Of a stretch of DNA of 64,000 nucleotides, positions 41,790 to 64,000 are shown piece after piece; the first letter of the stretch is position 1; each line of letters starts with the position of its first letter. This DNA comes from Planctomycetota bacterium. GTDB taxonomy: Bacteria; Planctomycetota; MHYJ01; WSZJ01. A program made the position numbers and the translations under genes. The DNA lies in NCBI GenBank assembly GCA_038060895.1, contig JBBTCT010000034.1, forward strand, positions 1-64,000, written 5' to 3'. A model generated the notes under the pieces. It had not been told where the DNA came from, made no database searches, and was given only the letters and a program-made list of their open reading frames with translations.

Positions 41790-43046
41790 ATGGGAATCCA
41801 GGCACCGCTAGGGTTCGAAGACCACCTCCCCGACCGCATGCCGGTCTGGCGTCGCATTGAAGAGGCCGCAAAGCGCGTCGCCGAGACGTATGGCTACCGC
41901 GAGATGCGCACTCCCCTTCTCGAATCAACCGAGCTCTTCATCCGCTCCGTCGGCGAGGTCACCGACATCGTCGAGAAGGAGATGTTCACCTTCGATAAAG
42001 GCGAAAAGGACTCGCTCACCCTCCGCCCCGAGCTCACCGCCTCCTTCGTCCGCGCCTGCGTCGAACACGGCCTCTTCAAGAAGAAGGCCTTCCAGAAACT
42101 GTTCTACATCGGCGCCAACTTCCGCAAGGAACGCCCGCAGAAGGGCCGCCTGCGCCAGTTCCACCAGTTCGGCGTCGAGGCCCTCGGCGCGACCGATCCC
42201 CTGCTCGACGCCGAGACCGTCCTCCTCGCGCTCCGCTTCTTCGAGGAGCTCGGCGTCCCCGGCGTGAAGACCAAGGTCAACTCGATCGGCTGCCCCAACT
42301 GCCGCCCGAAATACCGCGACGCCCTCAAGGCGAAGTTCGCCCCCATCATCGGCCAGTTCTGCGAGAACTGCCGGCGGCGCTTCGACCGCAACGTCTTCCG
42401 CATCCTCGACTGCAAGGTCGAGAAGGACGTCGCCCTCACCGCCGACGCCCCGCGCGTCCAGGACTCCCTCTGCGCCGACTGCCTCGCCCACGACAAGGCC
42501 TTCGTCGACGCCCTGTCGCGCGCCGGCGCTCCCTTCGCCCAGGACCCCCGCCTCGTCCGCGGCTTCGACTACTACACCCGCACCGTCTACGAGTTCACCG
42601 CCCCCGGCCTCGGCGCCCAGGACGCCATCGGCGGCGGCGGCCGCTACGACAACCTCATCGAGGAAATGGGCGGCGACAAGGCCGGCGCCGTCGGCTTCGC
42701 CATCGGCCTCGAACGCGTCGTCATCGCCCTCGAAGCCGCCGGCAAGGCCCCCGAGGAGGAATGGTTCTCCACCCGCGTCTTCGTCACCCACATCGGCCCC
42801 GAAACCCGCGTCCCCGCCTTCGACCTCGTCCGCCAGCTCCGCGCCGACGGCATCGCCGCCGACATGGACTACGAGGGAAGGTCGCTCAAGGCCCAGATGC
42901 GAAGCGCGAACCGCGTGAAGGCGCCGTGGGTTGTGATCATCGGCGGGGATGAGCTGGCGAAGGGGGTGGTGAAGTTGAGGGATATGGGGAAGAGTGTGGA
43001 GGTGGAGGTGAAGCCGGGGGAGTTGGGGGAGAGGGTACGGGGCTAA
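41790..43046 (+). CDS. hisS: Histidine--tRNA ligase
   Basis: [56 protein letters not shown], anticodon domain [11 protein letters not shown]. Confidence 0.98.
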
Positions 43047-43066
43047 GTCGGCGCCGGGGCCGACTT
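43045..43066 (+). terminator. Hairpin at the hisS stop
   Basis: AAGTCGGC-6nt-GCCGACTT; U-tract weak. Confidence 0.4.
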
Positions 43067-43200
43067 CGCTGTTCCACTTTTTGGCTGCTCCGCCCCAATT
43101 TCAAGCGCCACTCTGGTTGATCGCTCGGCGCAGCTCGCCTCGAACTGACGTTCACGGCCGGGCACCATTGCCGTCGACGCTCAGAATCTGACAATGCCCC

Positions 43201-43241
43201 TTGCGCAATAGTGTTATCTATGGTAACTTATTTTATAACAC
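43201..43241 (+). promoter_or_regulatory. AT-rich promoter with inverted repeat
   Basis: TTGCGC-17nt-TAACTT; GTGTTAT (43211-43217) / ATAACAC (43235-43241). Confidence 0.55.
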
Positions 43242-43262
43242 ATTCTATAAGTGAGAACAGCG

Positions 43263-43823
43263 ATGACGAAGTCGACCGTGATTACAAAGGAGTTCGACGC
43301 AATCAAGACAGCGTTAGAAGTCTTGGAGCCGCTAGACGCCAAGCAGCGCCAGTTTGTCGTGGGAATGATCCTCTCACGGCTCGACATGGCAGCGCCGGTG
43401 GCGAACGAAGTGGCCGGCGAATCGTCCGCGGGGAGCGGCGCTGAGCATGCGGGGGCCGCGTCGACCAAGGCACCCGGTGTGCGCGATTTTCTCAAGAGGA
43501 AGAGTCCGGCCACGGATCTCGAACGATTTGCCTGCCTCGCCTTTTACCTGACGCAGCACATGGGGTCAGCCGCGTTTACTACGCGCGACATCACAAAACT
43601 CAATGGCGAGGCAGGCGGGCAAGACTTCTCAAATCCGGCCGCCACGGCCATGAATGCGACGCGCCAGAGCAAGCTGCTCAGCAAAGCGGGCGGCGGCAAG
43701 AAGCGCATTACCATTCACGGAGAGGATCTCGTCAATGCCTTGCCTGATCGGGTGAAGGTAAAGGAGGTCATGAAGTCCAAGACCGTTCGGAAAAGGACGG
43801 CCCGGAAGCCGTCCAAGAAATAG
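43263..43823 (+). CDS. Hypothetical protein, probable winged-helix C-terminal domain
   Basis: FLKRKSPATDLERFACLAFYL..FTTRDI..LSKAGGGKKRITIHGE; basic tail. Confidence 0.75.
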   Translation: MTKSTVITKEFDAIKTALEVLEPLDAKQRQFVVGMILSRLDMAAPVANEVAGESSAGSGAEHAGAASTKAPGVRDFLKRKSPATDLERFACLAFYLTQHMGSAAFTTRDITKLNGEAGGQDFSNPAATAMNATRQSKLLSKAGGGKKRITIHGEDLVNALPDRVKVKEVMKSKTVRKRTARKPSKK

Positions 43824-43837
43824 GACGAGGCAACGGA

Positions 43838-44611
43838 ATGATCGCGACAATCAGACAAGGTCTCGCGGCCGCTCTAGATAGCAGTCTCGTCGACGAGTTG
43901 CTCGCGGCACACCAGGAGGCGAAGAGAAATTACTACCTCGGCGGCTTGCGGCTAAGCGCAGTAGAGGGCGGCCGCTTCTGTGAGGCGGCGTTTCGACTGC
44001 TCCAACAGCGGACATCGAAAACCTTCGACAGACTTGGTGTCCAACTCGACACAGAGAAGCTCATCAAGCAGCTCGGCAACATCCCTGCCGCTCAGGAGCT
44101 CGACGCTGTGCGGCTTCACATACCACGGGCGCTTCGCGTCGTCTACGACATCAGAAACAAGCGTAACAATGCCCACCTCGCGGACGGGATCGACCCGAAC
44201 TTGCAGGATGCGACGCTGGTCATTGGAGTCATAGATTGGGTTCTCGCTGAATTTGTTCGGCTCTACCACGCTGTTCCGGCCAACGATGCAAGGCAGATGG
44301 TGGAAAACATCGTCACTCGTTCTGCGCCCGCCATTCAGGACTTTGAGGGATTTCAAAAGGTCCTGCGTACCGATCTTAGCGCCAGCAATTTCGTCGTCCT
44401 TCTCCTTTACGCGAAAGGAAGTGCCGGCGCCAGCATCGAGCAGGTCGAGGGGTGGGTTCGTCCAAAGATGAGAGCCAACCTCCTGCGCACCTTGCATCAG
44501 CTGGAGCATGAGAAGGCGTTCATTCACCGGCGAGAAGGGATGCTGTTTATCACCCACTCAGGACAAAAACATGTAGAAGCGAATCGCCTCATGGCTCCGG
44601 AGCCTGCGTGA
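43838..44611 (+). CDS. HEPN-like protein with C-terminal wHTH
   Basis: GRFCEAAFRLL and YDIRNKRNNAH (E...R-x-H pattern); C-terminal LHQLEHEKAFIH..FITHSGQKHVE. Confidence 0.7.
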   Translation: MIATIRQGLAAALDSSLVDELLAAHQEAKRNYYLGGLRLSAVEGGRFCEAAFRLLQQRTSKTFDRLGVQLDTEKLIKQLGNIPAAQELDAVRLHIPRALRVVYDIRNKRNNAHLADGIDPNLQDATLVIGVIDWVLAEFVRLYHAVPANDARQMVENIVTRSAPAIQDFEGFQKVLRTDLSASNFVVLLLYAKGSAGASIEQVEGWVRPKMRANLLRTLHQLEHEKAFIHRREGMLFITHSGQKHVEANRLMAPEPA

Positions 44612-44693
44612 CCCGGAGTCTGAACCCCTGATGCGACGCGGGCATCTTGCGCCGGAAACTCGAAGATGCCACCCAGCGGTGACTCTTACCAAC

Positions 44694-47600
44694 CTACTTG
44701 ATCCACCACCCCTTGTTATTCGCGAACTTGAAGCCGAGTTCTTTCAGTCGTGCTGCCACGGGTCCTTCCGTACCAAGGTGGTAGACCCAGAGTGCGCCCA
44801 ACTTTGCGCGGTGATCCGCCGATTTCAAATTCTGTCCTCGGCATAGTTGCTCTACCTCCCGCAGCATCTTGGGATCAAGGTCATCGCTCTCCCGTCTAGA
44901 GAACAGGGTCTGCTGAGCATCTAGCGGCGCGGCCGTCCGCTCAGCGGCGGGGCGATCCGTGGCGGTGACACTTCGGAGAGGAGGGGCCACGAAATCGGCT
45001 CTGGCGCCCTGTGGTCCGACGGGAGGAATCTCGCTCGAAGTCGCGACTGTCGGACACTCTTGGAAAGCGTTGAGGGTGGCACGCTTTTCCATGGATGGCG
45101 AAACCGTCCGCCGTTCGGTGTGAATGCTTCTGCGGGCCCCGGCAGCGCCCACAGGTTCTATTCCGCGCTCCCGCAGACTCTTCTGCAGGTCTTCGATCAC
45201 GTGTCCTCGCCGACGGAGGAAGGCGGACGCAAAACAACGCCAGAATACCCAGCCTGCTCGTTCGAGTACGCGTTGGCGTCGCATGTCACTCGCCCATTGG
45301 TCAGCCCCGTGATACTGATCGCCGTCACACTCGATCGCTAGCCTCTCGTCGTTGCCTCCCTCCACGACCAGGTCGATTCGATACTGGCCGACGCCGACCT
45401 GCGGCGTGACGAGATACCCGCGCGAAATCAGTTCGTCATACATCTCCCTCTCAAAAGGTGACTCGCAGAGTTTGCGCAGATCGGCTGCACGAACCTCGTC
45501 CTGGGCGAAGGGTGAGGAAAAGTGTGCGATCAAACTTCGCCGCAGCTTGTCGGCGTCGCTGAGGTTCTCCGGCCCTACAGAGCGCACCAGGTACATTCGG
45601 TCACGCGCCCGCGACGCCGCCACGTTGAACCTCTGTTCAAAGGTTGCGCGAGTCGGCGGGGCGCCGACATCGTTCGGCGCGGACACCATCGAGAGAAACA
45701 TGATGTCACGTTCTTTTCCCTGGAACGTCCGAGCGTCTCCGCACGCAATCTGGTGACGCCTGATCACGTCGGGACCTACTTCTGCCGTCAACCGCTCCCA
45801 AACCGCGAAGGCCTGTTTGTCAGCCAGGAGCGATACGACTCCGATCGACCGATCCTTCATCCTCGGATCTGCGACGATATGCCTGATTTCATCGACGATG
45901 AAGCGGACCTCCGGCAAGTTCACGTCCTCCGTGCGGAATCCGTTCTCCACGACGACATCAATGAGGGGTGGATCCAATCGCTCCGAGGCCCTGGGAATTC
46001 TCAGGGGACGCAGTTCGTGGTTGTAGAACTCTCGCTTTGAGTACTCGATGATCGACGTCACGCACCGGAAGTGCTCTTTCAGCGTGACCGAGCTGCCAGC
46101 GAACACGACCTTGAAGAGGTCGTACATGGAACGATCAGGCGCCATCTGTGGGCCGAATGTTGGAACCTGGTCCGCGAGGAATCGACCCATCAGGTTCCGG
46201 ACCTTGTCTTCTTCCAAGCCAACTCCTTCGGGCGATACCTGCTTGTCATCTCCGACTACAAGAATCTTCTTTGCTCGAAGCATCGCAGGAAGTGCAGTCA
46301 GGTCTGATTGCGAGGCTTCGTCGATGACAACCAGGTCAAAGCAGCCAATTCGTGGAGGTAGCGATTCCGACACTCGATAGTGCGGCATGATCCAAGCGGG
46401 GACCGCGGGATTGGCCAATTCAGCCGCCTTGCGAGCGTCCTGGCGATAGCGAACGGCACGTTTGCCGGTCCCCTTGCCGATCTTCATGATCGCGTTGAGG
46501 TACCCCTGCAGCGCAGCGCGAACGCTGTGTGACGCGTTTTGAGTGAGATTCAGCCACGTTCGCTTTCCTACGATGTCGCGGTAGGCGCGCGCAAGATCTG
46601 TGGAGAGTTCTTCTCGCTCCCTTGCAAGTTTCTTCAGTGCAAGATGGGCATCGATGGAATCCAGGTGGCTCGCAAGGCGTCTCACTCTCCAGACCGATTT
46701 CAGGTTGTCCGGCAAGAGTGGGTCATGTGCGCCCTGGAGGGGCTGCCTGAGGGACTCCGCGAATTGCGACGCCCCCGAATCCTCGATGAGCGCACATACA
46801 TCTCGCACCGTCGCCAAGGCGGATTTGAGAGCCAGCACTCGTGAGAGCTCGGTCATCAATGCTGACCAGGTAGACTGAAGTGTCGCCTCTGAAACTTGCG
46901 AATTCCCAAGCGTTTCCTTCAAGAACCGACGAAGGTCCTCCACGACGCGACCTTGACGCCCGTCGAGGACCTTTGAAAATCTCCCCATCGTGTTCCAGAC
47001 ATTTGCCAGTCGGTTCTTCGCCAAGTGATGGCGCAACGCTCTCTCAAGATCGTCAAGCTTCTCCGCGTCTTCGGAGACAAGTCGGTGATGCGGCCATCGT
47101 GGAAACACACGCACCGCCTGATCCCGAAGGTCTGACTCCGCCTGCACGATCGCTCTGACCTTGGCGTAAAGTCCGTACAACTCAGCGGCCTTCAGGCCGC
47201 CTTCCGCGGCATCTCCAGGAACTGGCGCAAGTCCGATCGGAGCTGCCAGCTGATTCCAGCGAAGCGCAAGGGCACGCAGCCGCTGCAGGTGATCAAGGAA
47301 TGCCAGAACCTGTCTCCAATCTGCTGCGGACGCGGGAGGATTGCCAAGGATGAGAATTCCCCGCAGCCGTCTCTTCTGTTCGGACTTTCCGAGCAAACCA
47401 GCGATGAGTCCGAATGGGCTTCTTCCTTCGGCCAGGTTCCCGATGGCTGCCCGGACTTCCAGATCCCGCTCGACCTCCCCGGGAGTTTCCACCGGTCGCG
47501 CCAGGAATGATTTCTGAGCCGCGGACTCGGCGTTCAGCTCGGCACCGAGCGCTTCCAGCATCTTGAAAAGTTCGGCCTTTTCTTTTCTTCGCAGGTTTTC

Positions 47601-49679
47601 CCGGGCGTCGTTTGTCCAGGCCTGATTTGCCCTCACCACCTCTTCACGAAGGCCTCTCAGCGTTTCCACGAGAACTGCCAGGTTGGCCGCTCGAGCGAGC
47701 GTGTCCGGACCCGAATCCGCCAGAGTAGGGACCTCGCCCCGTTCGATACCGAGTTTCAGCTTTTCGAGTTCACATAGGTCAACGTGGGCGTCGAGCAGCG
47801 CGCGAGCCTCGGGAAACTCGACTAGTTGCGGAAGAGATGCGTGCAGGTAGTCGATGTCAATACCCAACTCCCGGCGAGCCTCTCGCAACTGAACAATTTC
47901 GGAATCGGAGAAGCGAGGAGCGAATGTCGGAGCAACACCGATCTCGTCCGGAATCAAGCCAAGAAGTGCCTCGTTGCTAACGACCTCGCGCGCAGCGTCT
48001 TGTGGGTCGATCTCCTGGTCATCTAGTCGGATCTTTGCGAGATTTCGTCTGGCCCAATCAGAAATCTTGCGGTCAATTCCTGCCAGGCTGCCGTGCAACG
48101 CTTCGATCCGTTCTTGCAGACGAAGTATCTCTCGTTTCGTGGCGCCTAGGTCGAGCGACTGTACTTCCGATGCGATCTTGTGGATCGCGTGCTCGAACTG
48201 CTTCATGCCACCGTGTTCACTGGCTAGAAGAGCAATCGAGAGCGGTCGGATCTCTTCCGGCAACTGCTCCTGAAGGACCGCGAGCGCCGGATCCTTCATC
48301 GACGTCACAAGGACGCGCTTGCCGTTCGCAAGAAAGTGGCAAATGACATTTGCAATCGTATGCGTCTTGCCTGTCCCAGGAGGTCCCTGTACGACGACGC
48401 CGTTGAAGACCTCTAGCAGCTGGACGATCCGGACCTGTTCGTCGTTGAAGGCCTTTGGAAAGTAAAGGTCTCGCACCTTGGACTTGGGTGACGAGGAGCC
48501 ACTTTCGCCAGCGTAGGCAACAGACAAGCCGCGGAACTCAGGCAAGTCAATTTCGCGGCTGGTGGTTTCCGGATCCGTCACCAGAGCTTTGACGGCGGGG
48601 GGAAGCTCTTCCTTTCCCTCAGACTCCTGAATCGCTTCCTTCAGCTTTTCCAGGTCCTGCAAAAAGACGCCTTGAGTTCTGGGGCGTGCGAAAACTACCC
48701 ACGTATTTGTCACCTTGAGGTGCTCATCGGCGTCAGGAATGCTGCGATCTTCGGAAGGCACCGTTTCGGGCCAGTAGACCCCGTGCGCGTCCAGGGTAGT
48801 TGCCGCCGAGCGGAGTAAGGATTCAAAGGTGCTCTGATCGAATGGAGAGAAAGTGGTCGTGACCGCCGCAAAATGGTCCTTTGCTGTCTTCTCCAGAACG
48901 CTTACTTCGCAATTCTCTACGCCGGAGCACCAGTCGATTTCAAGTCGAGCATCTGCCTGTCTTGGCCTCACCTTCAAGTTCCCGTTTTCGGGGTCGAGTG
49001 CCAGCTCCACAAGGCGAGTGACTAGCGGGTACGCCACGCGCATCCCATCACAATTCCAGACGCAGATGCCTGCGCCCCATACGAGCTCGATTTGTGACTC
49101 GACGATCCCCCCCTCAAGCTGTTGTTTCAGCGTGAAGAGCTTCGAGTAGAGTTGGATCGATCGCCTTCGCGGCTTCTCCCGTTCTGCCCAAGGCCTCCAC
49201 TCTGAGTCGAGGTAGTCGGAAAATTGGGACCTGACGATCGATGCCTTCGCGAAGTCAGCCAAGGAGACGAACGACAACGAATCTCCGACCTTAGCGCCCG
49301 CACTCGATGTGATACCTGCTTTCGAGTTCTGGCCGGTCTCTGGCGCGGCAGTCGTCGCCCCCAGAAACCTAAGATCAATCTGGCCAAGCAATTTGGGAGG
49401 CTCGGTCGGCAGGTCCTGGACTTCAACCCAGGGTCGGAGGATCTCACTTTTGATTCTCGGCGGCGGGTCCGGATGGAGTCGTTCCACCGAGAGCCACACT
49501 TCGTCATCGCCCTCGGCATCGTGAAGATCTAGATGGATCCCTGGCAGACCCTGAATCTCATGCTCGTGCATCGAGAAGAGTCGGTGCTGCGCGACGCTCG
49601 AAACGAACTTGCTCCGCAGGCGCGCAGATTGCTGCGCGAACTCGATCAGTGAGACCAAACGATCATGGGCGGAACTCAC
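44694..49679 (-). CDS. Large SF1 (Upf1/DNA2-like) helicase with C-terminal Vsr/MTES_1575-like nuclease
   Basis: QGPPGTGKT, DEASQ, VGDDKQ, LKEHFRC, FQGKERD, RFNVAASRAR; ESPFE..PQV.VG.YRIDLVV..AIECDG..YH..RQRVLERAGW; start probably GTG 49679 (track gives 49736). Confidence 0.9.
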   Translation of the reverse strand: MSSAHDRLVSLIEFAQQSARLRSKFVSSVAQHRLFSMHEHEIQGLPGIHLDLHDAEGDDEVWLSVERLHPDPPPRIKSEILRPWVEVQDLPTEPPKLLGQIDLRFLGATTAAPETGQNSKAGITSSAGAKVGDSLSFVSLADFAKASIVRSQFSDYLDSEWRPWAEREKPRRRSIQLYSKLFTLKQQLEGGIVESQIELVWGAGICVWNCDGMRVAYPLVTRLVELALDPENGNLKVRPRQADARLEIDWCSGVENCEVSVLEKTAKDHFAAVTTTFSPFDQSTFESLLRSAATTLDAHGVYWPETVPSEDRSIPDADEHLKVTNTWVVFARPRTQGVFLQDLEKLKEAIQESEGKEELPPAVKALVTDPETTSREIDLPEFRGLSVAYAGESGSSSPKSKVRDLYFPKAFNDEQVRIVQLLEVFNGVVVQGPPGTGKTHTIANVICHFLANGKRVLVTSMKDPALAVLQEQLPEEIRPLSIALLASEHGGMKQFEHAIHKIASEVQSLDLGATKREILRLQERIEALHGSLAGIDRKISDWARRNLAKIRLDDQEIDPQDAAREVVSNEALLGLIPDEIGVAPTFAPRFSDSEIVQLREARRELGIDIDYLHASLPQLVEFPEARALLDAHVDLCELEKLKLGIERGEVPTLADSGPDTLARAANLAVLVETLRGLREEVVRANQAWTNDARENLRRKEKAELFKMLEALGAELNAESAAQKSFLARPVETPGEVERDLEVRAAIGNLAEGRSPFGLIAGLLGKSEQKRRLRGILILGNPPASAADWRQVLAFLDHLQRLRALALRWNQLAAPIGLAPVPGDAAEGGLKAAELYGLYAKVRAIVQAESDLRDQAVRVFPRWPHHRLVSEDAEKLDDLERALRHHLAKNRLANVWNTMGRFSKVLDGRQGRVVEDLRRFLKETLGNSQVSEATLQSTWSALMTELSRVLALKSALATVRDVCALIEDSGASQFAESLRQPLQGAHDPLLPDNLKSVWRVRRLASHLDSIDAHLALKKLAREREELSTDLARAYRDIVGKRTWLNLTQNASHSVRAALQGYLNAIMKIGKGTGKRAVRYRQDARKAAELANPAVPAWIMPHYRVSESLPPRIGCFDLVVIDEASQSDLTALPAMLRAKKILVVGDDKQVSPEGVGLEEDKVRNLMGRFLADQVPTFGPQMAPDRSMYDLFKVVFAGSSVTLKEHFRCVTSIIEYSKREFYNHELRPLRIPRASERLDPPLIDVVVENGFRTEDVNLPEVRFIVDEIRHIVADPRMKDRSIGVVSLLADKQAFAVWERLTAEVGPDVIRRHQIACGDARTFQGKERDIMFLSMVSAPNDVGAPPTRATFEQRFNVAASRARDRMYLVRSVGPENLSDADKLRRSLIAHFSSPFAQDEVRAADLRKLCESPFEREMYDELISRGYLVTPQVGVGQYRIDLVVEGGNDERLAIECDGDQYHGADQWASDMRRQRVLERAGWVFWRCFASAFLRRRGHVIEDLQKSLRERGIEPVGAAGARRSIHTERRTVSPSMEKRATLNAFQECPTVATSSEIPPVGPQGARADFVAPPLRSVTATDRPAAERTAAPLDAQQTLFSRRESDDLDPKMLREVEQLCRGQNLKSADHRAKLGALWVYHLGTEGPVAARLKELGFKFANNKGWWIK

Positions 49680-49825
49680 GCCCAGCCATGCAACATCGCT
49701 GACATCATGTCGGTCAAGGGTACTGTAGACTTCCACCGCGGAGTGACGACTCGCCCCGTTGCCGGTCTGCGACGCCTAGCAGTATTCCGGCCTCCGATCG
49801 AAGTGTTGCCGCCTCCAAGGACACG

Positions 49826-50428
49826 ATGGACAACCCAGCTCCCACACACGCGCAGGCGATTCGAAAACCGGCGACCATCGATCAGGCTTTCGTCCGTGAA
49901 GTCGTCGGCGAGTTTCCGCATGGAAGCTGGAAATCCCTGCGAGGTTCAAACCTCAGCTCGTCGACCGAAGCCAACTCAAAAGCACGATCTTGGAAGTGCG
50001 TGCGATGCCTCCATAAAGTCGGAGGCGTCTACGCATTCTTGTTTCCGGAGAGCCACTTTCTCGAAGAGCGCGAAATCTCACTCGACGGACCGCTGAAGCG
50101 AAGCATCCCATTCAGATTTAGTCACAAGACTCACCCTGCACACGAGGGGTACGTCGTGGCCTACGTCGGAAAAGCCACGAACCTGAGTCAGCGATTCAAG
50201 TTGCACTTCAGCAGGACCGAAAGGAGCACCGTCGTGCAGGTCAGAGCCGGTCTCGTCAAGTCGGGTTTCTGCGTGGATCGCCACCTTGCGCTGGATTTCA
50301 TGCTCCAGCACGCGGTGATCAGGTATCGAGAACTGACAGGAGATGAGCACGCCGCCAACCGCGACCTCCTGGAGTTGTCGCTGTGCGCGCGCTTCGCGCC
50401 ACCGTTCAACATCAAATCTGAACGGTGA
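49826..50428 (+). CDS. GIY-YIG-like nuclease
   Basis: GGVYAF...YVGKATNLSQRFKLH...E..C....PPFN. Confidence 0.7.
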   Translation: MDNPAPTHAQAIRKPATIDQAFVREVVGEFPHGSWKSLRGSNLSSSTEANSKARSWKCVRCLHKVGGVYAFLFPESHFLEEREISLDGPLKRSIPFRFSHKTHPAHEGYVVAYVGKATNLSQRFKLHFSRTERSTVVQVRAGLVKSGFCVDRHLALDFMLQHAVIRYRELTGDEHAANRDLLELSLCARFAPPFNIKSER

Positions 50429-54260: not shown

Positions 54261-54329
54261 CCGGGCGCTGGGCGGCGGCCATGGATTCCTTCTGAGGCGA
54301 GGGAGAAGCGAAAACGCTAGATTCGCGGC

Positions 54330-55398: not shown

Positions 55399-57648
55399 AT
55401 GCCGCTTTGTCCACGTCTGCTGACGGGCGTCCTGGCCTCGAGCCTCTTTCTGCTGAGTCCTGTCCATGCCGAAGATGCCTCGCCCAAGGTGACGGATTGG
55501 CGTGGGGGCGCGAAACTCGCGGGGCTGACCGACGCCGAGGTCGAGCGGCTCGCGAAACAGAAAATCCTGATCGCCGGCCCTCAGCGACTGCAGGTTTTTC
55601 AGGTCTACGAAGGCTCGAGGGTGCCTACCTTCGTCACGTCCGATGCGGTGCTCAACGCCTTCCACGTCCTCTTTGAAGAGAGCGTGGTCCGCCTTGAGAG
55701 GTCGCGTTCAGAACGGCTTGCGGGCGTGCTGCGTCCGATCTGGGACGGCATCCCGGAGGCGATCAAGCGATTCGAATGGCCGGAAGACGAGAAGCAGGAT
55801 GCCGTTCGTCGCGCGCAGATCACGATCGGCGTGGGGTTGCGCCTGCTCGGCGCGGAATCGCCGGGAGCCTCGAAGGATGTCCTGGATGCGATCGAGGCCG
55901 AAATCGGGCGCGTCCTCGCGGGGAAAGAGCGCCTGCGACCGGAATGGCTCGGCCCGCATGACGACGGATTTCCGTTCATCGACTACAGCCGGTTCGAGCC
56001 GCGCGGTTTCTACACGCGCGACGAACGCCTCCGGGCCTACTTCCGCGCGTCCGCCTGGCTGCAGGCCGTTCCCTTCAGGACCGGACAGGACCGCGAGATA
56101 CTGACAGCGGCGGTGATTTCCGAAGCGATCGGAGACCGCGCTGGACGGTGGGAGTACGAGCACTTCAATCGCGTCCGGACATCACTCCTCGGCCGCTACG
56201 GGGACCTGACGATCCCTTTCCGCGCGTTTTCAGACCGGCCGTGGTCGAAGGAGGACCTCAGGACTTATCGCAAGGATTGCGAGGAATCCTGGAAAAGCGC
56301 AAATCCACAGAAGGACGACCCTGTGGACGCCCTGGCTCCGCGCTTTCACGGGTTTGAGCCATGCCTGCGGGTCTTCCCCGCCGCCTTGTTGCCGGAGGGA
56401 CGGCTCTTCGATCTCTGGTGCGACCCGCGCGTGCAACCCACCAGGGAGCCGTCGGGATTGTTCGTCGCGGCCGCGCTGGGCGGAGACTTCGCGCGCGCGG
56501 AGGCCCTGGCGCATCGAACGCCGGGCGAAGCGGAGGAACTGGCCCGAGTCATTGACGCCTGCCGGTCCCTTCCGAGTTGCGGCGGCCTCTACGGCGACTA
56601 TCTGCATTGCCTCGAAGCGCTTCTCGACGAAGCCGAGCCCGATGCTCCGGCATTCGTGTCGTCAGACCCATGGAAGCGCAAGAGCACGAATGCAGCCCTG
56701 GCGGGCTGGGCGCAAGCCCGGCACACATGGGTTCTGCAGGCCCGTGAAGACGTCATGTGGGGCGGAAAGGAAGACACGCTGGCCGGGTTCGTCGAACCTG
56801 ACCCTGAGTTCTTCTCGAGGCTGGCCGAACTCATCGAGAGAAGCTCGACGCTTCTGGAGAAGGAGGGTGCCTTCGATGAAAGCCTGTCACGGCAGGAATT
56901 CCTGTGGCTCGCGAAGGATCTCGCCGAATCGCTTCGCGGCGGTGGCAGCCCGCGAGCCTGGACGGAGATCGAGGGGATGGTGATGTATGGTCGAAAGTCC
57001 GGGATTGTGGACTGGTTCTCCTGTCTGCGATCGGGCGAGGAGTTCGCGGGGATTCCGAGCCAGCAAGAGCTCACCCCTGAGGAGCTTCCGAAGGTCCTGA
57101 AGGCGGTGGAACGGGACATCAAGCTCCTTGAAGGAAGCGATCCCCTGCCTCGCTTGCTCGCTTCGTGCGTTTCGGACATCACGCCGCCGCTTCAGCTCAC
57201 CTGGCGAAGGCTCGAAAGGCTCTGCAGGCGTCTCGAAGCGATGTCCCAGAAGCAGCTGAGGGGCAGGCCCTGGGACCAGGAAGAGCGGCATTTCCTGTTG
57301 AACTTCGGGCCCGAGTTGGGCGCGGCGATGCTCTACGAAGGAAATTCCTACGAACACCCCAACGACGACGCGCCTCGCGTGTCGTCGGTGTACGCTGACC
57401 TGCGTGACCCGCGGGCGCCTCGTTACTTCCAGGCGGGAATCGCACGGCCTCGTGCGCTGTACGTCCTCTACCCGTGGAACGGTGAGGAGTGTCTCTGCCG
57501 CGGCGTGGTCGTGCCCTACCGCGAATTCGTCGGCCCGAATCGCCTCGGCGACGCGGAGTGGCGGGCGCTGCTGGACTCGAAGGATGCGCCTCCGTCCCCG
57601 TCGTGGATGGAGCCCGTGGTTTCGCCAGAACCGCCCGGGAAGAAATAG
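55399..57648 (+). CDS. DUF3160-like secreted protein
   Basis: PTFVTSDAVLNAFH, DYSRFEPRGFYT..L.AYFRA..W, ALAGWAQARH..L.A, GFVEPDPEFF, G.V.PYREF. Confidence 0.85.
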   Translation: MPLCPRLLTGVLASSLFLLSPVHAEDASPKVTDWRGGAKLAGLTDAEVERLAKQKILIAGPQRLQVFQVYEGSRVPTFVTSDAVLNAFHVLFEESVVRLERSRSERLAGVLRPIWDGIPEAIKRFEWPEDEKQDAVRRAQITIGVGLRLLGAESPGASKDVLDAIEAEIGRVLAGKERLRPEWLGPHDDGFPFIDYSRFEPRGFYTRDERLRAYFRASAWLQAVPFRTGQDREILTAAVISEAIGDRAGRWEYEHFNRVRTSLLGRYGDLTIPFRAFSDRPWSKEDLRTYRKDCEESWKSANPQKDDPVDALAPRFHGFEPCLRVFPAALLPEGRLFDLWCDPRVQPTREPSGLFVAAALGGDFARAEALAHRTPGEAEELARVIDACRSLPSCGGLYGDYLHCLEALLDEAEPDAPAFVSSDPWKRKSTNAALAGWAQARHTWVLQAREDVMWGGKEDTLAGFVEPDPEFFSRLAELIERSSTLLEKEGAFDESLSRQEFLWLAKDLAESLRGGGSPRAWTEIEGMVMYGRKSGIVDWFSCLRSGEEFAGIPSQQELTPEELPKVLKAVERDIKLLEGSDPLPRLLASCVSDITPPLQLTWRRLERLCRRLEAMSQKQLRGRPWDQEERHFLLNFGPELGAAMLYEGNSYEHPNDDAPRVSSVYADLRDPRAPRYFQAGIARPRALYVLYPWNGEECLCRGVVVPYREFVGPNRLGDAEWRALLDSKDAPPSPSWMEPVVSPEPPGKK

Positions 57649-57849
57649 CTCGAGTCGCAAGGTCTTGTTCGTGGTCCTGCGCGTCCTGTCCAGATGCCCG
57701 CCTCCCGTGCCCCGTTGCACGGGCTCGCCGTTGCGGCGGAAACGGCGGCTTCTAAGTTCGTAACTGTAAGGGCGGTCAAGATCGGCGAGCGATCGTGTAC
57801 CGTAACGTCGGCTCGTTGACAGGTGCATCCCGTGCTTCGGAGGAAGTCC

Positions 57850-59403
57850 ATGAACGCGCTTCGCCGGCTCACACTCGCCTCCGCCGTCGCCGTCGCTGTG
57901 CTCGCGCCGCTTCCCACATCCGCCTGCCTGGGCGAGTACCGGAGCCTGGACTGGATGGTGGGGCACGCCACGCTGATCTTCGTTGGGACGGTGGAATCGG
58001 TAGAGAAGGCGCCTTCGGGGCGGGAAGACGCGCGGAGAGGCCCCTCGCAGGACGGGCCGACAGTGGCGACGGTGAAAATCGTGCGCGTGCTGCATGGCAC
58101 GGCGCCGGACGCGACGATCCGGCTCCGGTCCGGGCCGGTCGCGTCCTGAGCACCGGAGGCCATCTACTTCGGTTTCGAAGTCGGTCAGACTTCGATTTTC
58201 ATCCTGATCGGTTCGACGTCCAGCGGTACGGCAACGCTGTCGCGGGGCGCCTGCGTGCAGGGCTTGGAAGACCTGGAGGCCTTGCGGTCGCGCATCGTCC
58301 GCGCAAAGGCGTGGCGGGCGGAGCACCTCGAGCAACTGCGAAGGACGGACCCGAAGCTTTTCGAGGCGGCCGAGGCGCTCAACGCAGAGATGAGGAAGGC
58401 AGTAGAAACGGCGCCCTTTCCCGATCCCAGGGATGATGGCTCGTCGTTCGAGGCTACTCATGAGGCGGTCGAAAAGCTGACGAAGCGCCTCGCCGAAATT
58501 GAACCGCAGGTCGCGTTCGAGGCCCTGGCGATGGATTGGCTGGACACGACGAAAGGGCACTGGTCCGGTGACGAATACAGTGTTTGGGGAAATGCGGTCA
58601 GGGATGCTTTCCGCGACCGCGAGAAAGAAGTAGCGACACTTCAGAAGAACGAAGCCGAACGCCTGCTTCTCCGTGCCGGCCTCTCGAAGACCCAGGTCGC
58701 GGAGTACATCGCGGCGGTGGACAGCGGCTTCGGAAGATCCCCCGAGTTCCCCCTTGATCCGCCGAACGGCTACCGACTCGACAAACTTTCGCCGGAGATC
58801 GCGACCACGGACTTCATCCTCCGCTGCGAAACGTACGACCGCGGGGCGATCTACTTGCTCTACGGCATGTGGGGAGAACGGCTTGCCAAGATCCTCCCCG
58901 CGCGCGTCCAGGACCGGATCCCGTCCATGCTCTCCAGCCCGGACGGCGACGCGTGGGTCGCGGCGCGTCTGATCGAGGAAGTGAAGGGATTCCACTTCGT
59001 CGATGAGGTCCTCCGTCGCCAGGTGGCCGGGGAGAGGCCGGGCGTGTTCCTCTTCCTCAACGCGGACGACAAGAACTGGAAAACCGATGTCCTCAACGAG
59101 ATGTTCAAGCGGGCAAGAACCGGGTACTCCCTCTGGGGAAGATCCCGGCTCTGGGACTCGTTGGGGACAAGCGGGATCGATGACCCCGTGTGCATCGGCG
59201 CTGCAATTGCGGATCTCGAGAACGAAGAAAAGGCCGGGAAGCGCACGGAGGATGAGGAACGCTGGGCCTCCGGGTTTCGCGATTCGCTTCGGCGTTATCT
59301 CACCTTCGCCCAGTCCGCCCGAAGCGCACAGGGGGACGCAAAGAAGTCCGCCGCGGAGTGGAATGAGTGGTTCGAGAAGAATCCGGCTCCGGCGAAAAAG
59401 TGA
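57850..59403 (+). CDS. Secreted protein with in-frame TGA at codon 100 (candidate selenoprotein, TIMP/NTR-like N-terminal domain)
   Basis: GGAGG SD + ATG; ORFs 57823-58149 and 58255-59403 share a frame with only TGA 58147-58149 between them; SECIS-like hairpin follows. Confidence 0.7.
58175..58195 (+). promoter_or_regulatory. Putative bacterial SECIS element
   Basis: TCGAAGTC-GGTCA-GACTTCGA: perfect 8-bp stem, G-initiated loop 33 nt after the TGA. Confidence 0.6.
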
Positions 59404-59486
59404 TCGGTCGGGGCGAGGCCAGGACGAAGCGCGGCGTCTTTCACAACCGAACCGTCATTGCTTCGGCTGGAAAACGAACCGCGGTT

Positions 59487-59647
59487 GGCTTCACCGCCGA
59501 CATGGACTACGAGGGCCGGTCGCTCAAGGCCCAGATGCGAAGCGCCAACCGCGTGAAAGCGCCGTGGGTCGTGATCATCGGCGGGGATGAGCCGTTCGAC
59601 TCGCTTCGCTCGCTCACTGTGGACTGGCGAAGGGGGTGCTGATGTTG
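59487..59647 (+). repeat. Displaced hisS 3' fragment, copy 2 (with a 32-bp insertion)
   Basis: 59487-59592 matches hisS 42849-42954 (7 differences); insertion 59592-59623; homology resumes at CTGGCGAAGGGGGTG (hisS 42954-42977). Confidence 0.92.
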
Positions 59648-59713
59648 GGCCGGTGTCGGATACAGTAGTCAGCGACTGGCCGTTCCCCTTCTACACGGTT
59701 CTACGCACACACC

Positions 59714-61009
59714 ATGAAAACAATCGGCTTCCTATCCTGCGTCCTCGGCGTTGCCATGTCGCTCCCGGCATACGCCCAGGGTGCTCCCGTATCAATCCCG
59801 ATCCGCACAGGAGTGCTTGGCGCCACGGAGCTCGGCTACCAGGGATACGCCGATGGGATCGAGCATCCCATCGAGGGGCAGAGCTTCGAAGCCTATGGCC
59901 ACGAAATCACACTCGATCGCAACGGTGCTCAGCCGACCGTGACAGTCGCGGGCAAGGCCACGAAGATCGCACGATTTCCGTGGATTCTCAAGCTGGGCTC
60001 AGGTGGCGAGGCCCGCGCAATCGAGATCGTGAGCCACGGCGAACGCCTGATGTGGACCAGCCATTGGGGCGCGACGTTCCAGCTCGACCAGCAGCCGTTC
60101 GCCGTCATCGATGCGGACGGCGACGGCGTGCTCTGGGAAATCGGAGAGGACGCGATTATCGGTCCCGACAGCTCGACGGCGACCCGCTACACGGGTGGGG
60201 CGTGGACCACGAAAGGCGGCTGGACCCTCGCGCCCGATGGCCCCCGGCTCCGGGCCTCCGCGATCGCGCTGTCATGTCCCCCGGAAATGCACAAGGCCTG
60301 GTGCCGATTCAACGTCGAGCGCCAGGCCGCGGGTTGCCAACCGGTCGCCTGGGACGAGGAGCTCGCGCGCGGTTGCCGCGCCCACGTCGCCTACTTGGCG
60401 CGCAACGACGTCCGCGGTCACGACGAAGATCCCAGCAAGCCCGGGTTCACCGAGATAGGTCGGACCGCCGCGAAGCAGTCCGTCCTGGGGTATCAATACG
60501 CCGACCCGCTCGAGGCGATCATCGAGCAATTTCGCACTGCCTACCACCTCGAGAATGTCATGAAACCCGGGCTCTTGAGCTCGGCGATGGCGATCCAGGG
60601 CACTCACTTCGCCTGCAACACCGAGGGTGGTAAGTCGGAGTCCGTCCAATCGGGATCGGTCGCCTGGGTCTGGCCTGCTCACGGCCGCCGCGATGCGTTT
60701 CGCGTGTTCAACGCGGGTGGCGAACAACCGATGCCAGTGCCGGGCCACGAGAAGGATTACCAAATGACCTTGGGGCAGGTCGTGTGCGCCAAGGTGACCC
60801 CGGGCAAGTGGGATCTGGTCGTCGAGACCGCCGCGGGCCAGCGCATCGAGGGCGTGCTGACCTTCCCCGGAAAGGGCATCGCCGGCAAGCCGGACAACGA
60901 CGAATTGGTGATCCTGGCGCCAGCGGCCTCGCTTCCCGTCGGCATGCTCCGCGCCACCTTGTCGCGCGACGGGGCGATCGAACGCCGGTGGTGGTTCGCC
61001 ACGCGTTGA
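59714..61009 (+). CDS. Secreted protein with CAP-like domain
   Basis: Signal peptide; DADGDG motif; N.ERQAAG..PVAWDEELARGCRAH..YLARN..GHDEDPSKPGFT..G, F.TAYH. Confidence 0.75.
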   Translation: MKTIGFLSCVLGVAMSLPAYAQGAPVSIPIRTGVLGATELGYQGYADGIEHPIEGQSFEAYGHEITLDRNGAQPTVTVAGKATKIARFPWILKLGSGGEARAIEIVSHGERLMWTSHWGATFQLDQQPFAVIDADGDGVLWEIGEDAIIGPDSSTATRYTGGAWTTKGGWTLAPDGPRLRASAIALSCPPEMHKAWCRFNVERQAAGCQPVAWDEELARGCRAHVAYLARNDVRGHDEDPSKPGFTEIGRTAAKQSVLGYQYADPLEAIIEQFRTAYHLENVMKPGLLSSAMAIQGTHFACNTEGGKSESVQSGSVAWVWPAHGRRDAFRVFNAGGEQPMPVPGHEKDYQMTLGQVVCAKVTPGKWDLVVETAAGQRIEGVLTFPGKGIAGKPDNDELVILAPAASLPVGMLRATLSRDGAIERRWWFATR

Positions 61010-61088
61010 ACAGCGACGTACAAGAAGCCCCTGTCGAGCACGAAACCATCCTCTTCCGCATCGTCTACTACGCGTCCTGCGCTTCCTG

Positions 61089-61450
61089 CTCGTGAAACAC
61101 CCCGCACCATCCGCTTCCCGCCGCGATACCATTCGCAACGCGTTCGATCCGGCGTCACAGGGAGGCGGCATGCTCCGGAAGACATGGCTGGCACTTCTCC
61201 TCTGCGCGGCCCCGCTCGCGGCCGAGGAGGGCTACGACGCGGGCGACAGCTGCCCCGACTTTGAGCTCTTCAACACGGACGGCCGCGCCGTCCGGCTCTC
61301 CGAATTCCGCGGGCGCGTCGTGGTGCTTCACCTGTTCGCCACGTGGTGAGGCGGCTGCCAGGCGGGCGGGGCGCCGATCGCGCAGTTCGCGCGGGAGGTG
61401 AAGGACGACGGGCGGGTGGCGTTCGTCGAGATCGCGGGCGGGGAGACCCC
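61089..61450 (+). repeat. Direct repeat copy B (upstream region + 5' part of the Sec-redoxin gene; ATG 61170, TGA 61347)
   Basis: Near-identical to 53215-53576; same W-TGA-GGC motif. Confidence 0.95.
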
Positions 61451-61484
61451 TTCGTGGTTCGACGCGCCTGATATACTTGCACCC

Positions 61485-61799
61485 ATGAAAGCGAATGGCT
61501 CCACGCACAAGTCGTCGCCGGCGGCCGAAGTGGCCCGGCTGCGGCGGCTGATCGAGCGAGTTGAGAAGAACCTGAGTGCCAAAATCGCACACCTTGAAGA
61601 GAAGCTCGAGGCTGGCGCGCGGGGCGGCGCTTCTGCACGGCTCCGCGAACGCAACGAGCTACGGGCGCGGGGCGGCGTGGCGCGCCTCCAGTCGGACCTG
61701 CGAACGCAGTACGAGATGGGCATCATCGATCGACAGGGCCGCCGGGTCCGCACGGGCTGGCCGGACAAGAAGCTTGAGCGCGGCTCCGACGTGGTGTGA
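61485..61799 (+). CDS. Small protein upstream of the zeta-like ATPase (putative antitoxin)
   Basis: TGATATACT extended -10 with ATG 7 nt later; stop overlaps the next gene (GTGA). Confidence 0.65.
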   Translation: MKANGSTHKSSPAAEVARLRRLIERVEKNLSAKIAHLEEKLEAGARGGASARLRERNELRARGGVARLQSDLRTQYEMGIIDRQGRRVRTGWPDKKLERGSDVV

Positions 61800-62434
61800 G
61801 CGCTTCAGCTCAAAAGCGGCCGCCGGTCATGGACCTCGTGGCGGGACCCCAGGGGAGCGGCAAATCCACGTTCTTCCCCGTCAGGGAGAGCGGCGTTGCG
61901 GCGTTCAACGTCGACGAACACCGCAAGAGCCTGAATCGCGGATCCTCGGAGAACATTCCCGAACACGTGCTGCGGAGAGCCCTCGCGGACTACGAGGCGT
62001 TCATCGAGGGGCACATCCGGGCGAAAGAGAGCTTCTCAATTGAAGTCACCCTGGGGAAAGACATCACGTTCCAGCAGGCGCGAAAAGCCAAGCGCGCGGG
62101 ATTCAGCGTGGAAATGACGTTCGTCGCCGCAGAGTTACAGGACTGCCTTGCGCGCGTAGCCAAACGACTGGAGGCCGGCGGGCACGGAGTTCCGCCCGAG
62201 GTCATCACGGCCACGCACGAGGCCAGCATGAAAAACCTGCCCCGCGCCCTTGCGCAATTCGACGCCGTGGTGGTCTACGAAAATGCCGGGCTCGCGGGGC
62301 CGGAAATCGATCCCGCTTCCCTGTTCCCTCGCCTGGTCCTTGAGGCGCAGTCGGGCCGGGTCACGTTTGTCGCCGAGGGGCCGCCGGAATGGCTGCGGAA
62401 GGCATTGGCGGGCAGCCGCTTCGAATTGAAGTAG
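61796..62434 (+). CDS. Zeta-toxin-like P-loop kinase/ATPase
   Basis: VAGPQGSGKSTF, FNVDE, SFSIEVTL, AKRAGF, ARVAKR...GGHGVP..VI. Confidence 0.8.
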   Translation: MSASAQKRPPVMDLVAGPQGSGKSTFFPVRESGVAAFNVDEHRKSLNRGSSENIPEHVLRRALADYEAFIEGHIRAKESFSIEVTLGKDITFQQARKAKRAGFSVEMTFVAAELQDCLARVAKRLEAGGHGVPPEVITATHEASMKNLPRALAQFDAVVVYENAGLAGPEIDPASLFPRLVLEAQSGRVTFVAEGPPEWLRKALAGSRFELK

Positions 62435-62461
62435 ACGCCCGTTCGCGCTTAACTTGAGCGC

Positions 62462-63112
62462 ATGCCTAAACTCGTGGTCCGCAGTTTCGCCATCTCCCTG
62501 GACGGCTTCAGCGCCGCTCCCGGGCAGAGCCAGAAGGAGCCCTTCGGGAAGAACGGCCTGAGGCTCATGGGGTGGGCCTTCGCCACCAAACACATGACCA
62601 CCCTGTTCGGCGGCACGGGCGGCGCCGAGGGCATGGACAACGACTTCCTGGCCCGATCGGACGAGAACATCGGCGCCAGCATCATGGGCCGCCACATGTT
62701 CGGCCCGCCCCCCGACGCCAAGGACAAGGAGTCCTGGAAGGGCTGGTGGGGCGAAAACCCTCCCTACCACCACCCCGTCTTCGTGCTGACCCACGAAAAG
62801 AAAGCCCCCCTCCCGATGGAAGGCGGCACTCGCTTCACCTTCGTGAACGACGGCATCGAATCCGCCCTGAAACAGGCCCTCGCCGCCGCCCAAGGCAAAG
62901 ACGTCCGCCTGGCCGGCGGCGCGGCCACCGTCCGCCAATACCTGAAAGCCGGCCTCATCGACGAGCTCCACCTGGTGCAGGTGCCCCTCCTGTTCGGCCA
63001 GGGGGAACGCATCTTTGAAGACCTGGGGGGCGTGGAGAGCCTGTACGAGTGCGTGGAGTTCACGCCTTCCAGGGCGGTGTCGCACTTGCGGATCGTCAGG
63101 AAGGCCAGGTAG
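62462..63112 (+). CDS. Dihydrofolate reductase-like (RibD C-terminal) protein
   Basis: ISLDGF, IMGRHMF, WWGENPPYHHPVFVLTH, GGAATVRQYL.AGLIDEL, P.LFGQGERIF. Confidence 0.9.
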   Translation: MPKLVVRSFAISLDGFSAAPGQSQKEPFGKNGLRLMGWAFATKHMTTLFGGTGGAEGMDNDFLARSDENIGASIMGRHMFGPPPDAKDKESWKGWWGENPPYHHPVFVLTHEKKAPLPMEGGTRFTFVNDGIESALKQALAAAQGKDVRLAGGAATVRQYLKAGLIDELHLVQVPLLFGQGERIFEDLGGVESLYECVEFTPSRAVSHLRIVRKAR

Positions 63113-63199
63113 GGAATCACCGCCGACATGGATTACGAGGGAAGATCGCTCACGGCCCGGATGCGAAACGCCAACCGCGTGAAGGCGCCGTGGGTCGTG
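63113..63199 (+). repeat. Displaced hisS 3' fragment, copy 3
   Basis: Matches hisS 42849-42935 with about 9 differences in 87 bp; same left boundary as copy 2. Confidence 0.9.
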
Positions 63200-63231
63200 G
63201 AGCCGCGCCGGCGCGGGACATCACGGGCCGC

Positions 63232-63260
63232 TTGACTTCACAAAGCCACACAACTATGAT
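63232..63260 (+). promoter_or_regulatory. Sigma70 promoter of the TA operon
   Basis: TTGACT-17nt-TATGAT; GGAGG SD before ATG 63286. Confidence 0.75.
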
Positions 63261-63285
63261 ATTTGCACTACTTGGAGGACTTCCC

Positions 63286-63558
63286 ATGATCCAGCATGTC
63301 TCCCCGCTGCACCTCCGCCAGAAGCTCGGCGACGTCCTGAACCGCGTCGCGCTTCGGCAGGACGAGTACGTCATCGAGCGCAAGGGGCATCCGCTCGCAG
63401 CGCTGGTGTCAGTCGAGAAGATGCGATCCCTCGTGGAGGCGGCGCGGCTGCACCTGCTGGCGGCGCTTCCGGCGCGCCGCACGAAACTCCCGCAGGCCGC
63501 GGCGGACGCGCTTGCGGACGAGGCCAAGCACCGGTCGCGTCCGAGGCGGAGGAAGTAG
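63286..63558 (+). CDS. Phd/YefM family antitoxin
   Basis: LRQKLGDVLNRV...EYVIERKGHPLAALV. Confidence 0.85.
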   Translation: MIQHVSPLHLRQKLGDVLNRVALRQDEYVIERKGHPLAALVSVEKMRSLVEAARLHLLAALPARRTKLPQAAADALADEAKHRSRPRRRK

Positions 63559-63561
63559 CCC

Positions 63562-63999
63562 GTGATTCGGGCCGTGCTGGACGCCAACGTCCTGGCGAGC
63601 GCGTTCATCCGCCCTCAAGGACATTCCGGGCAGATCCTGCGCCGGTTTCTCGAGCGGGGTGAATTCGACCTCGTGCTCTCGCGGCCGATCCTGGATGAGC
63701 TGGAACGGGTGCTCTTCTACCCGCGCCTTCGCAAGGAGTTGGCCGTGACGGACGACGAAATCCGGGCGCGCGTCGCCCACCTCGGGGTGCTGGCCGTGCT
63801 CGCGGAAGGCGAGGCGGGCGAGAGGATCGTCGAGGCGGATCCCGACGACGACAAGTACGTCGCGGCTGCGCTTCATGGGCAGGCGTCCTTCCTCGTCAGC
63901 GGCGACCGCCACCTGCTGGACCTCAAGGATTCCCGCGGGGTGCGGATCGTCAAGCCGAGGGAGTTTCTGGACGTCCTCTCTTCGACGCGCCCGGCCTGA
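63562..63999 (+). CDS. PIN-domain toxin (TIGR00305-like)
   Basis: RAVLDANVLASA, ILDEL, DPDDDKY..AA, LVSGDRHLL, IVKPREFL. Confidence 0.9.
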   Translation: MIRAVLDANVLASAFIRPQGHSGQILRRFLERGEFDLVLSRPILDELERVLFYPRLRKELAVTDDEIRARVAHLGVLAVLAEGEAGERIVEADPDDDKYVAAALHGQASFLVSGDRHLLDLKDSRGVRIVKPREFLDVLSSTRPA

Positions 64000-64000
64000 T

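Follow-up and report, generated by a model that had tools for sequence, protein, structure and literature searches.

Gene blocks stacked behind hisS in a planctomycete, bounded by hisS tail fragments and a twice-occurring redoxin gene head

Introduction

How can blocks of foreign genes pile up behind one housekeeping gene with no insertion enzyme visible beside them, and why do fragments of two different genes alternate between the blocks? This question is raised by a stretch of DNA from an uncultured Planctomycetota bacterium (GCA_038060895.1), here called the window, which comprises the first 64 kb of the 120,950-bp contig C34 (JBBTCT010000034.1) in a metagenome bin of 5.4 Mb and 86.5% completeness; the same DNA is found in groundwater and aquifer metagenome runs. 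A stack of blocks spans 23 kb on the 3′ side of the single intact hisS gene, and its components follow one another in the order hisS, block A, redoxin-a, block B, f2, block C, redoxin-b, block D, f3, insert E and f4, where f2 to f4 are pieces of the hisS tail and redoxin-a and redoxin-b are copies of the head of a redoxin gene. To the right of f4 come more low-GC (guanine-plus-cytosine) genes, encoding GT2 and radical SAM proteins, and then a cyclophilin gene.

The locus is real, but as a recombination hotspot it is fairly ordinary, and it is not a new cassette machine. Gene 3′ ends followed by island stacks without an integrase are a known pattern, of which the locus is a further example; what is unusual is the interleaving of a redoxin head, for which a cargo relic that became duplicated is the simplest explanation. 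The array is probably a decayed stack resembling cis-mobilizable elements (CIMEs), with the redoxin as part of the cargo, while the proposal that the unit was doubled by homologous recombination has somewhat less than an even chance; the two taken together, as a compromise, form the best overall explanation and stand a little above even. The locus matters because few mobile elements have been described for planctomycetes, and here anti-phage and toxin–antitoxin genes collect at one housekeeping gene throughout a genus with no visible insertion enzyme. If repeats alone drive the stacking, genes would flow into such hotspots without a dedicated recombinase, which, if true, bears on the origin of integrase-less defence islands generally.

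hisS and its displaced tails

The intact hisS gene (41790..43046, + strand) encodes a protein of 418 aa that is matched over its full length by the Pfam families tRNA-synt_His and HGTP_anticodon, and tblastn against the genome returns it as the single full copy in the assembly. The repeat template is the last ~200 bp of this gene (42849–43046). Fragment f2 (59487..59641, +) starts at hisS 42849 and is shortened at its right end; its positions 59487–59592 match hisS 42849–42954 at 93% identity (E 2.5e-39). Fragment f3 (63113..63199, +) corresponds to hisS 42849–42935 (90%, E 2.7e-26), and alignment and self-BLAST thus bear out the original prediction that both fragments begin at the same hisS position. 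A further piece lies outside the window, where that prediction had proposed to look: f4 (contig 65894–66059, +), which reaches the hisS stop codon. The end of f3 (63175–63199) and the start of f4 (65894–65918) are identical in 25 of 25 bases, and f3 and f4 are therefore one tail split by the 2.7-kb insert E. The locus accordingly presents what is looked for in an island, an intact target followed by displaced direct copies of its 3′ end: hisS and three tail pieces (effectively two, one of them split), all on the + strand.

Short identical cores at the unit ends are uneven in quality, with 25/25 bases for insert E and 80/87 and 78/87 for the larger units. Pairwise comparison of hisS, f2 and f3 gives 80/87, 78/87 and 77/87 identical positions, with the differences scattered and no single perfect core.

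Two shared features tie the fragments to one another. A 32-bp insertion resembling a repetitive extragenic palindromic (REP) element interrupts f2 at ~59593–59624, and the same insertion occupies the same site in f4 (~65938–65969); in addition, f2 and f3 have in common a G-to-A change that is absent from all eight aligned hisS genes. Since a working hisS tail cannot hold a 32-bp frameshifting insert, f2 and f3/f4 would be copies of one decayed fragment, or would have been homogenised by conversion, or the insertion would be site-specific; the flank of the REP-like repeat itself resembles the hisS sequence at the insertion spot. Judged by their sequences, the hisS fragments are evidently copies of one another and not independent leftovers, from which it would follow that a unit of the form hisS tail–X–redoxin head–Y was laid down twice. 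The tandem units of the original prediction are supported to this extent.

The REP-like repeat is dispersed through the genome, with 46 matches on 24 contigs at no more than 3 mismatches. Its core of ~22 nt is bracketed by CCC and GGG, and runs of a 10-nt unit often come after it; copies also occur in the hisS island of the related species G003, and a remnant stands just to the left of redoxin-a.

Beyond the stack, just after the conserved cyclophilin gene, contig C34 holds a remnant of the middle of hisS (69435–69491; aa 164–182, 95% DNA identity over 41 bp), and its counterpart in the relative G004 covers hisS aa 209–241 (L025, 17546–17644). These remnants suggest that an older hisS copy, by now almost lost, stood at the opposite end of the hotspot. 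No relevant account of islands integrating at hisS came out of a literature search.

The redoxin heads

Redoxin-a (53198..53576, +) consists of ~98 bp of upstream DNA followed by codons 1–94 of a TlpA/ResA-like gene, while redoxin-b (61072..61450, +), which yields AhpC-TSA and Redoxin matches, is fused in frame to the open reading frame (ORF) upstream of the zeta toxin gene. The two copies are 96.3% identical over 379 bp (E 2.6e-178), and the repeated redoxin start ending in GGETP that the original prediction had described is therefore real, though its shared extent is longer than the 362 bp given there. The 100-bp flanks agree only at the random level (23/100 and 26/100). Both copies contain an ATG (53296 and 61170) and a signal-peptide-like start and run as far as GGETP, and when an in-frame TGA is read as selenocysteine (Sec) both encode the same 94 residues, in which the signal-peptide-like start leads into a TlpA/ResA-like thioredoxin fold, with W-U-G-G-C at codon 60 and the TGA at the first Cys of the CxxC motif. 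Family matches are weak: ResA and TlpA score below their cut-offs, and AhpC-TSA reaches 26.3 bits against a cut-off of 26.

The Sec reading is reasonable because the genome carries two predicted tRNA-Sec genes and SelB and because 28 of the 55 listed thioredoxin-like matches in 40 relatives contain one in-frame TGA. The lineage seems to be rich in Sec-containing thiol oxidoreductases. A hairpin of the Sec insertion sequence type after the TGA folds no better than shuffled sequences (z 0.02), a measure that is uninformative in such GC-rich sequence.

Single-domain homologues of 176–213 aa align only as far as their residue ~120, so that about the second half of the redoxin gene is gone; both copies are, by this comparison, apparently dead fragments of a TlpA/ResA-type selenoprotein gene. 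Six homologues of this size, used as tblastn queries, detect no C-terminal half anywhere on the contig. Nor does an intact gene appear elsewhere: the DNA of the genome itself contains the two truncated heads only, its nearest resident paralogues being at most 34% identical; the best protein match in the 40 relatives is 46% identical and the best in genome_contigs (one genome per GTDB species) 48%; and metagenome_contigs (JGI) contain none. An index of 5.8 billion proteins and a set of 1.84 billion representatives hold no longer form, only N-terminal pieces or relatives of at most 51% identity. Near-identical sequences are limited to three short metagenome ORFs (83–97%) that end at the same TGA and have the same left module border.

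The divergence between the two copies is distributed unevenly. Twelve mismatches fall in the first 104 bp and two in the next 275 bp (Fisher p 6e-6), and none of 5000 permutations is as uneven as the observed pattern, which would fit a recombination or conversion tract. In three of six homologue alignments redoxin-a extends 2–8 residues beyond the shared end, a weak hint that the truncation points of the two copies may differ.

These results bear on the strong form of a cassette-exchange explanation, in which hisS and the redoxin gene once lay side by side and pieces of both are kept for repeated use as homology arms. The strict alternation of the two fragment types would fit it, as would arms of 87–379 bp with no recombinase, the recombination-like signature in the redoxin arm and the left module border shared with short metagenome ORFs. 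Against this stand the redoxin arm, known from this species only, the differing truncation points hinted at above and the searches, which found no intact redoxin and none near hisS in any of the seven relatives; moreover, the hisS fragments are decaying through REP insertion, truncation and splitting by E, which argues against maintenance. Such a history is very improbable. The ancestral hisS–redoxin locus on which the original prediction rested fails by its own refutation test, with no intact redoxin found here, beyond position 64,000 or in relatives, and the redoxin is most simply taken as cargo that would not have been an old neighbour of hisS.

Search for a recombinase

Among the 104 ORFs of at least 50 aa between 42849 and 64000, none matches an integrase, resolvase or transposase family of Pfam, in line with the earlier remark that no such gene was visible. 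Pfam, NCBIfam, PADLOC and PHROGs likewise identify no recombinase among the island ORFs, and PHROGs gives no match for 12 of them without known family. The tyrosine recombinase family PF00589 has seven matches in the genome and none on the 121-kb contig C34, window and continuation alike; the serine recombinase family PF00239 has none in the genome. The product of orf382, which lies beside f2 in the place expected of an integrase, was considered as a recombinase and rejected, as it resembles helical-repeat proteins in the ESM Atlas (all scores below 0.9, to be read as leads only).

The units thus lack integration and transfer genes, as expected of CIMEs. Integron cassette arrays resemble the locus in that small cassettes, promoter-less or with promoters of their own and in many cases toxin–antitoxin pairs, follow one another with a recurring site between them; unlike integrons, the contig carries no intI and no tyrosine recombinase, and the recurring sites here are gene fragments without attC-like folding. 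Specifically, the hisS-tail repeats fold as single-stranded DNA no better than shuffles (z −0.33 to 0.81), and an integron attC-type site at the hisS tail was rejected on this ground.

No attP-like copy of the hisS tail was found elsewhere in the genome. An exact 20-mer of the 25-bp core has no match in IMG/VR and 12 matches in JGI contigs, all unrelated to the region by BLAST.

The hotspot in the genus

All seven other species of the genus have hisS, 93–97% identical to the present gene in G001–G005 and 80–81% in G006 and G007, and in none of these genomes does a redoxin gene lie near it. Six of the seven carry different cargo after hisS and G007 has no island; with the present species included, seven of eight species hold differing cargo there, comprising defence systems and toxin–antitoxin pairs, and at least five of these have extra hisS-tail pieces. 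Among the relatives such pieces occur in G001, G002, G003, G005 and G006, those of G001 and G005 including pieces on other contigs. No hisS-tail contig in any of the eight genomes carries PF00589. As cargo differs among relatives and their hisS-tail contigs lack this family, the hisS tail is a genus-wide integrase-less hotspot.

The content of the site varies accordingly. In G004, hisS is followed by a Gabija-like pair of OLD/TOPRIM and UvrD genes; in G006 by IS66, LAGLIDADG, nucleotidyltransferase and RibD_C genes, then a hisS fragment and DarT/Macro. In G003, three hisS tails bound cassettes of 1.4 and 1.9 kb, and RhuM and a zeta pair follow, the cargo families being DUF4240, DUF3027, Sel1, RhuM and zeta. 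G002 has a degenerate tail piece and a RibD_C gene set directly against an 804-aa gene whose counterpart here lies at 71288–73702. On its right the hotspot is bordered by old, conserved neighbours, namely the RibD_C, cyclophilin and 804-aa genes. RibD_C followed by a hisS fragment is found both here and in G006, whose hisS sequences are the most distant pair compared (80%), and this junction is therefore old.

Among all hisS tails the final ~25 bases differ, and the ~60 bases that precede them are nearly invariant. One displaced tail of G003 (L024, raw 16789–17082, − strand) retains an open frame of 98 aa with very high third-position GC that corresponds to a stand-alone HisRS anticodon-binding domain, and this frame might still be expressed.

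Assembly and metagenome contigs

The assembly was checked against Logan contigs of metagenome runs, which drop rare forms. Contigs of X1 (the probable source run) and X2 bridge every hisS-fragment junction: B/f2/C is spanned by single contigs in both runs (53544–61144 in X2), the D/f3, f3/E and E/f4 junctions are bridged, and one X2 contig extends from the hisS tail across block A as far as the left border of redoxin-a. In these contigs the redoxin repeat is collapsed into a 333-bp piece with two ways in and two out, so that the original assembly is the basis for pairing its left and right flanks. The possibility of misassembly, raised in the original prediction, is thus answered by independent contigs for the hisS fragments, whereas the redoxin flank pairing has no independent confirmation.

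In a different arrangement, the chromosome would run from hisS through A and a redoxin head to D, and redoxin head–B–f2–C, 7,874 bp long, would form a circle of its own, or else the repeat would have been mis-joined in the bin. The collapsed repeat, with its double entry and exit and its unconfirmed pairing, would allow it. Sequencing depth runs the other way: B–f2–C equals A and D in both runs (14.9 against 15 and 15.3 in X1; 11.6 against 11.5 and 10.7 in X2), and the collapsed repeat piece is deeper (24.8 against 15 in X1, 15.1 against 11.5 in X2), in X1 roughly as for two copies. The segment also carries no recognisable replication gene. Such an arrangement is extremely improbable.

Runs from two other studies contain the same array, with parts at least 99% alike in 51 of 81 aligned X3 contigs and 26 of 28 aligned X7 contigs; the array is therefore stable in this species. 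At 61031, shortly past the CAP gene, one X3 contig departs from the window, a hint of a variant arrangement. An apparent joint from 59591 to 65969 was rejected as a deletion form, being the genuine hisS tail of a neighbouring contig aligned on f2 and f4.

The same anatomy at two other genes

Repeated 3′ ends are found elsewhere in the genome. On contig C6 (L050), a 1325-aa gene is followed by a 2.8-kb insert with an alpha/beta hydrolase gene and ORFs without known family, and then by 448 bp that repeat the gene's own 3′ end at 97.5% identity (20740–21187 and 24026–24473). On contig C15 (164218–171672, L049), a TPR_12/TPR_10 gene has its 3′ part present in four direct copies (76–510 bp, 94–97%), between which lie small blocks, among them a MazF/PemK and DUF433 pair. 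Neither contig carries PF00589, and no recombinase was found at the C6 site.

Fragments of four genes, namely the hisS tail, the redoxin head, the TPR gene and the 1325-aa gene, could be read as parts of a recombinase-free cassette exchanger of this planctomycete lineage, in which dead gene fragments would serve as portable homology arms and RecA alone would stack defence and toxin–antitoxin cargo, excise it as circles and swap it between strains, as a homology-based counterpart of integrons and integrase-driven islands. So broad a system is quite improbable. The narrower idea of the original prediction, that the fragments act as recombination arms, holds in part: they are plausible substrates of homologous recombination, the two redoxin copies showing 12/104 against 2/275 mismatches, but no excision, circle or swap is seen among the contigs.

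Origin of the stack

The enzyme and the order of events we infer to be as follows. Foreign gene blocks would have piled up after hisS, delimited by dead copies of its last 90–200 bases, and two neighbouring blocks would each have brought the same dead head of a foreign redoxin gene, comprising promoter region, signal peptide and the first 94 codons. The two kinds of fragment would alternate because two neighbouring blocks each hold the same redoxin head. RecA-type homologous recombination between the long direct repeats (87–379 bp) would have laid the unit down twice, either by Campbell-type insertion, the repeats arriving on a circle, or by unequal crossover between two island variants; a circle or variant with tail–X–head–Y that recombines with the resident tail or head would double both repeats with no enzyme in cis. 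Beneath this doubling there may be at least one older insertion at a 25-bp site in the hisS tail. Homologous recombination also explains the like anatomy at the C6 and C15 genes.

Among the closest known processes, Campbell-type insertion-duplication and unequal crossover, both RecA-dependent, yield an intact gene, an insert and a 5′-truncated copy; they double all repeats that the incoming unit carries, and homology of tens to hundreds of bases is enough for them. At the present locus neither a naturally occurring donor circle nor an intermediate of amplification was observed.

CIMEs and tandem accretion of the ICESt1/ICESt3 type, as reviewed in PMC5704250, likewise combine an intact target gene with direct 3′-end copies, and their units are stacked, lack integration or transfer genes and differ in cargo between relatives. 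The present array differs from them in having no integrase near the hisS site in eight species, in the restriction of a perfect short core to unit E, in the interleaving of a second, unrelated gene fragment (the redoxin head), and in its target, hisS, and host, a planctomycete. The tycheposon islands of Prochlorococcus (preprint 10.1101/2020.12.28.424599) resemble the locus in lying beside one housekeeping gene, in their remnants of degenerate elements and scattered partial target copies, and in cargo that includes defence and niche genes; their targets are tRNA genes, of which contig C34 has none, their repeats are short, and part of the genomes bear elements with an integrase, whereas none was found here.

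The chief alternative for the doubling is that the array is CIME-like throughout and arose by site-specific recombination. Successive elements of one family would have entered the hisS tail by means of a tyrosine integrase since lost or acting in trans, each bringing a hisS-like arm that starts near 42849, and the two units would be related, with the redoxin relic as part of their common backbone. The perfect 25-bp direct repeat around insert E fits this account, as do the clustering of fragment starts near 42849–42858 and of breaks near the 25-bp site across four species and the variable last ~25 bases of hisS, whose variability would follow if each incoming element brought a gene end of its own. 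Five tyrosine recombinases besides the two top-scoring matches exist elsewhere in the genome. Integration, decay to a CIME and accretion of a further element are described in PMC5704250, and scattered partial tRNAs with degenerate elements are described for tycheposon islands (10.1101/2020.12.28.424599). However, no hisS-tail contig in the eight genomes has an integrase, the attP-like tail copy is missing both from the genome and, by exact 20-mer scan, from IMG/VR, and the REP-like insertion of f2 and f4 falls in the very part that the model derives from two successive working hisS tails; furthermore, the arrays at the two other genes would each need an integrase specificity of their own. Site-specific accretion of the whole array is therefore judged unlikely, and homologous recombination is placed slightly ahead of it for the doubling, with insert E, at least, looking site-specific.

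Several points nevertheless weigh against a stack doubled by homologous recombination. Insert E is flanked by a direct repeat of 25/25 bases that has the look of a site-specific core, and the hisS-fragment breaks in G001, G005 and G006 lie within ~10 bp of this site, although they may all stem from one old event. Fragment starts cluster at hisS 42849–42858 (f2 and f3 here, the third fragment of G003 and a weak 19/21 match in G001), a clustering likewise expected of an integrase family whose attP arm is fixed. The genomes are metagenome bins, so that an integrase may sit on an unbinned contig. Past purifying selection on the coding part could partly explain the uneven divergence of the redoxin copies. 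There is no known source of circular donor DNA, and among the contigs, which lack rare forms, no junction of a deletion, circle, excision or cargo swap is seen. Finally, blastp finds no genes shared between blocks A and C or between B and D; as these pairs have no detectable homology, a simple duplication in place would need later replacement of cargo or two pre-existing variants. Similarity between blocks in tblastx was discarded as compositional noise.

Cargo of the blocks

The cargo labels of the original prediction hold, and the cargo includes a DS-32 pair, a zeta toxin, RibD_C and Phd/PIN. Block A (43047..53197) is defence cargo of low GC content (58.5%, against 65.8% for the genome) and includes two ORFs without known family. 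Its largest gene (44694–49736, −) encodes a protein of 1680 aa that combines a superfamily 1 helicase, an MTES_1575 nuclease domain of restriction-endonuclease type and a ZorC-like C-terminal end, and this helicase–nuclease resembles Hhe, ProA and PDC-S37 below their cut-offs. Next to it, a phosphoribosyltransferase gene (PRTase-CE, 50577–51587) and a NADAR gene (51594–52241) score above the NCBIfam cut-offs for the DS-32 anti-phage pair. Block A additionally contains a GIY-YIG protein and, near its right end, the remnant of a small gene (53005–53182, −) that is kept in the hisS islands of G001, G003 and G004 and is followed by the REP-like remnant.

Block B (53577..59486) comprises orf156, orf317, a DUF3160 protein gene (55399–57648), orf108 and orf382, and block C (59642..61071) holds one gene, for a CAP-domain protein (59714–61009). 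Block D (61451..63112) carries a small ORF and the zeta toxin gene (to 62434), then RibD_C (62462–63112). Insert E (contig 63200–65893, of which 63200..64000 lies in the window) encodes the Phd (63295–63558) and PIN (63562 to ~64002) pair and, in its right part, a 53-bp gene remnant (64110–64162) and a TPR gene (64162–65880, −).

The TPR gene of insert E contains internal 120-bp tandem repeats (contig 64338–65250). A separate TPR/DUF1570 gene upstream of hisS (40014–40799) has a 68% identical paralogue 47 kb downstream (contig 87757–88542).

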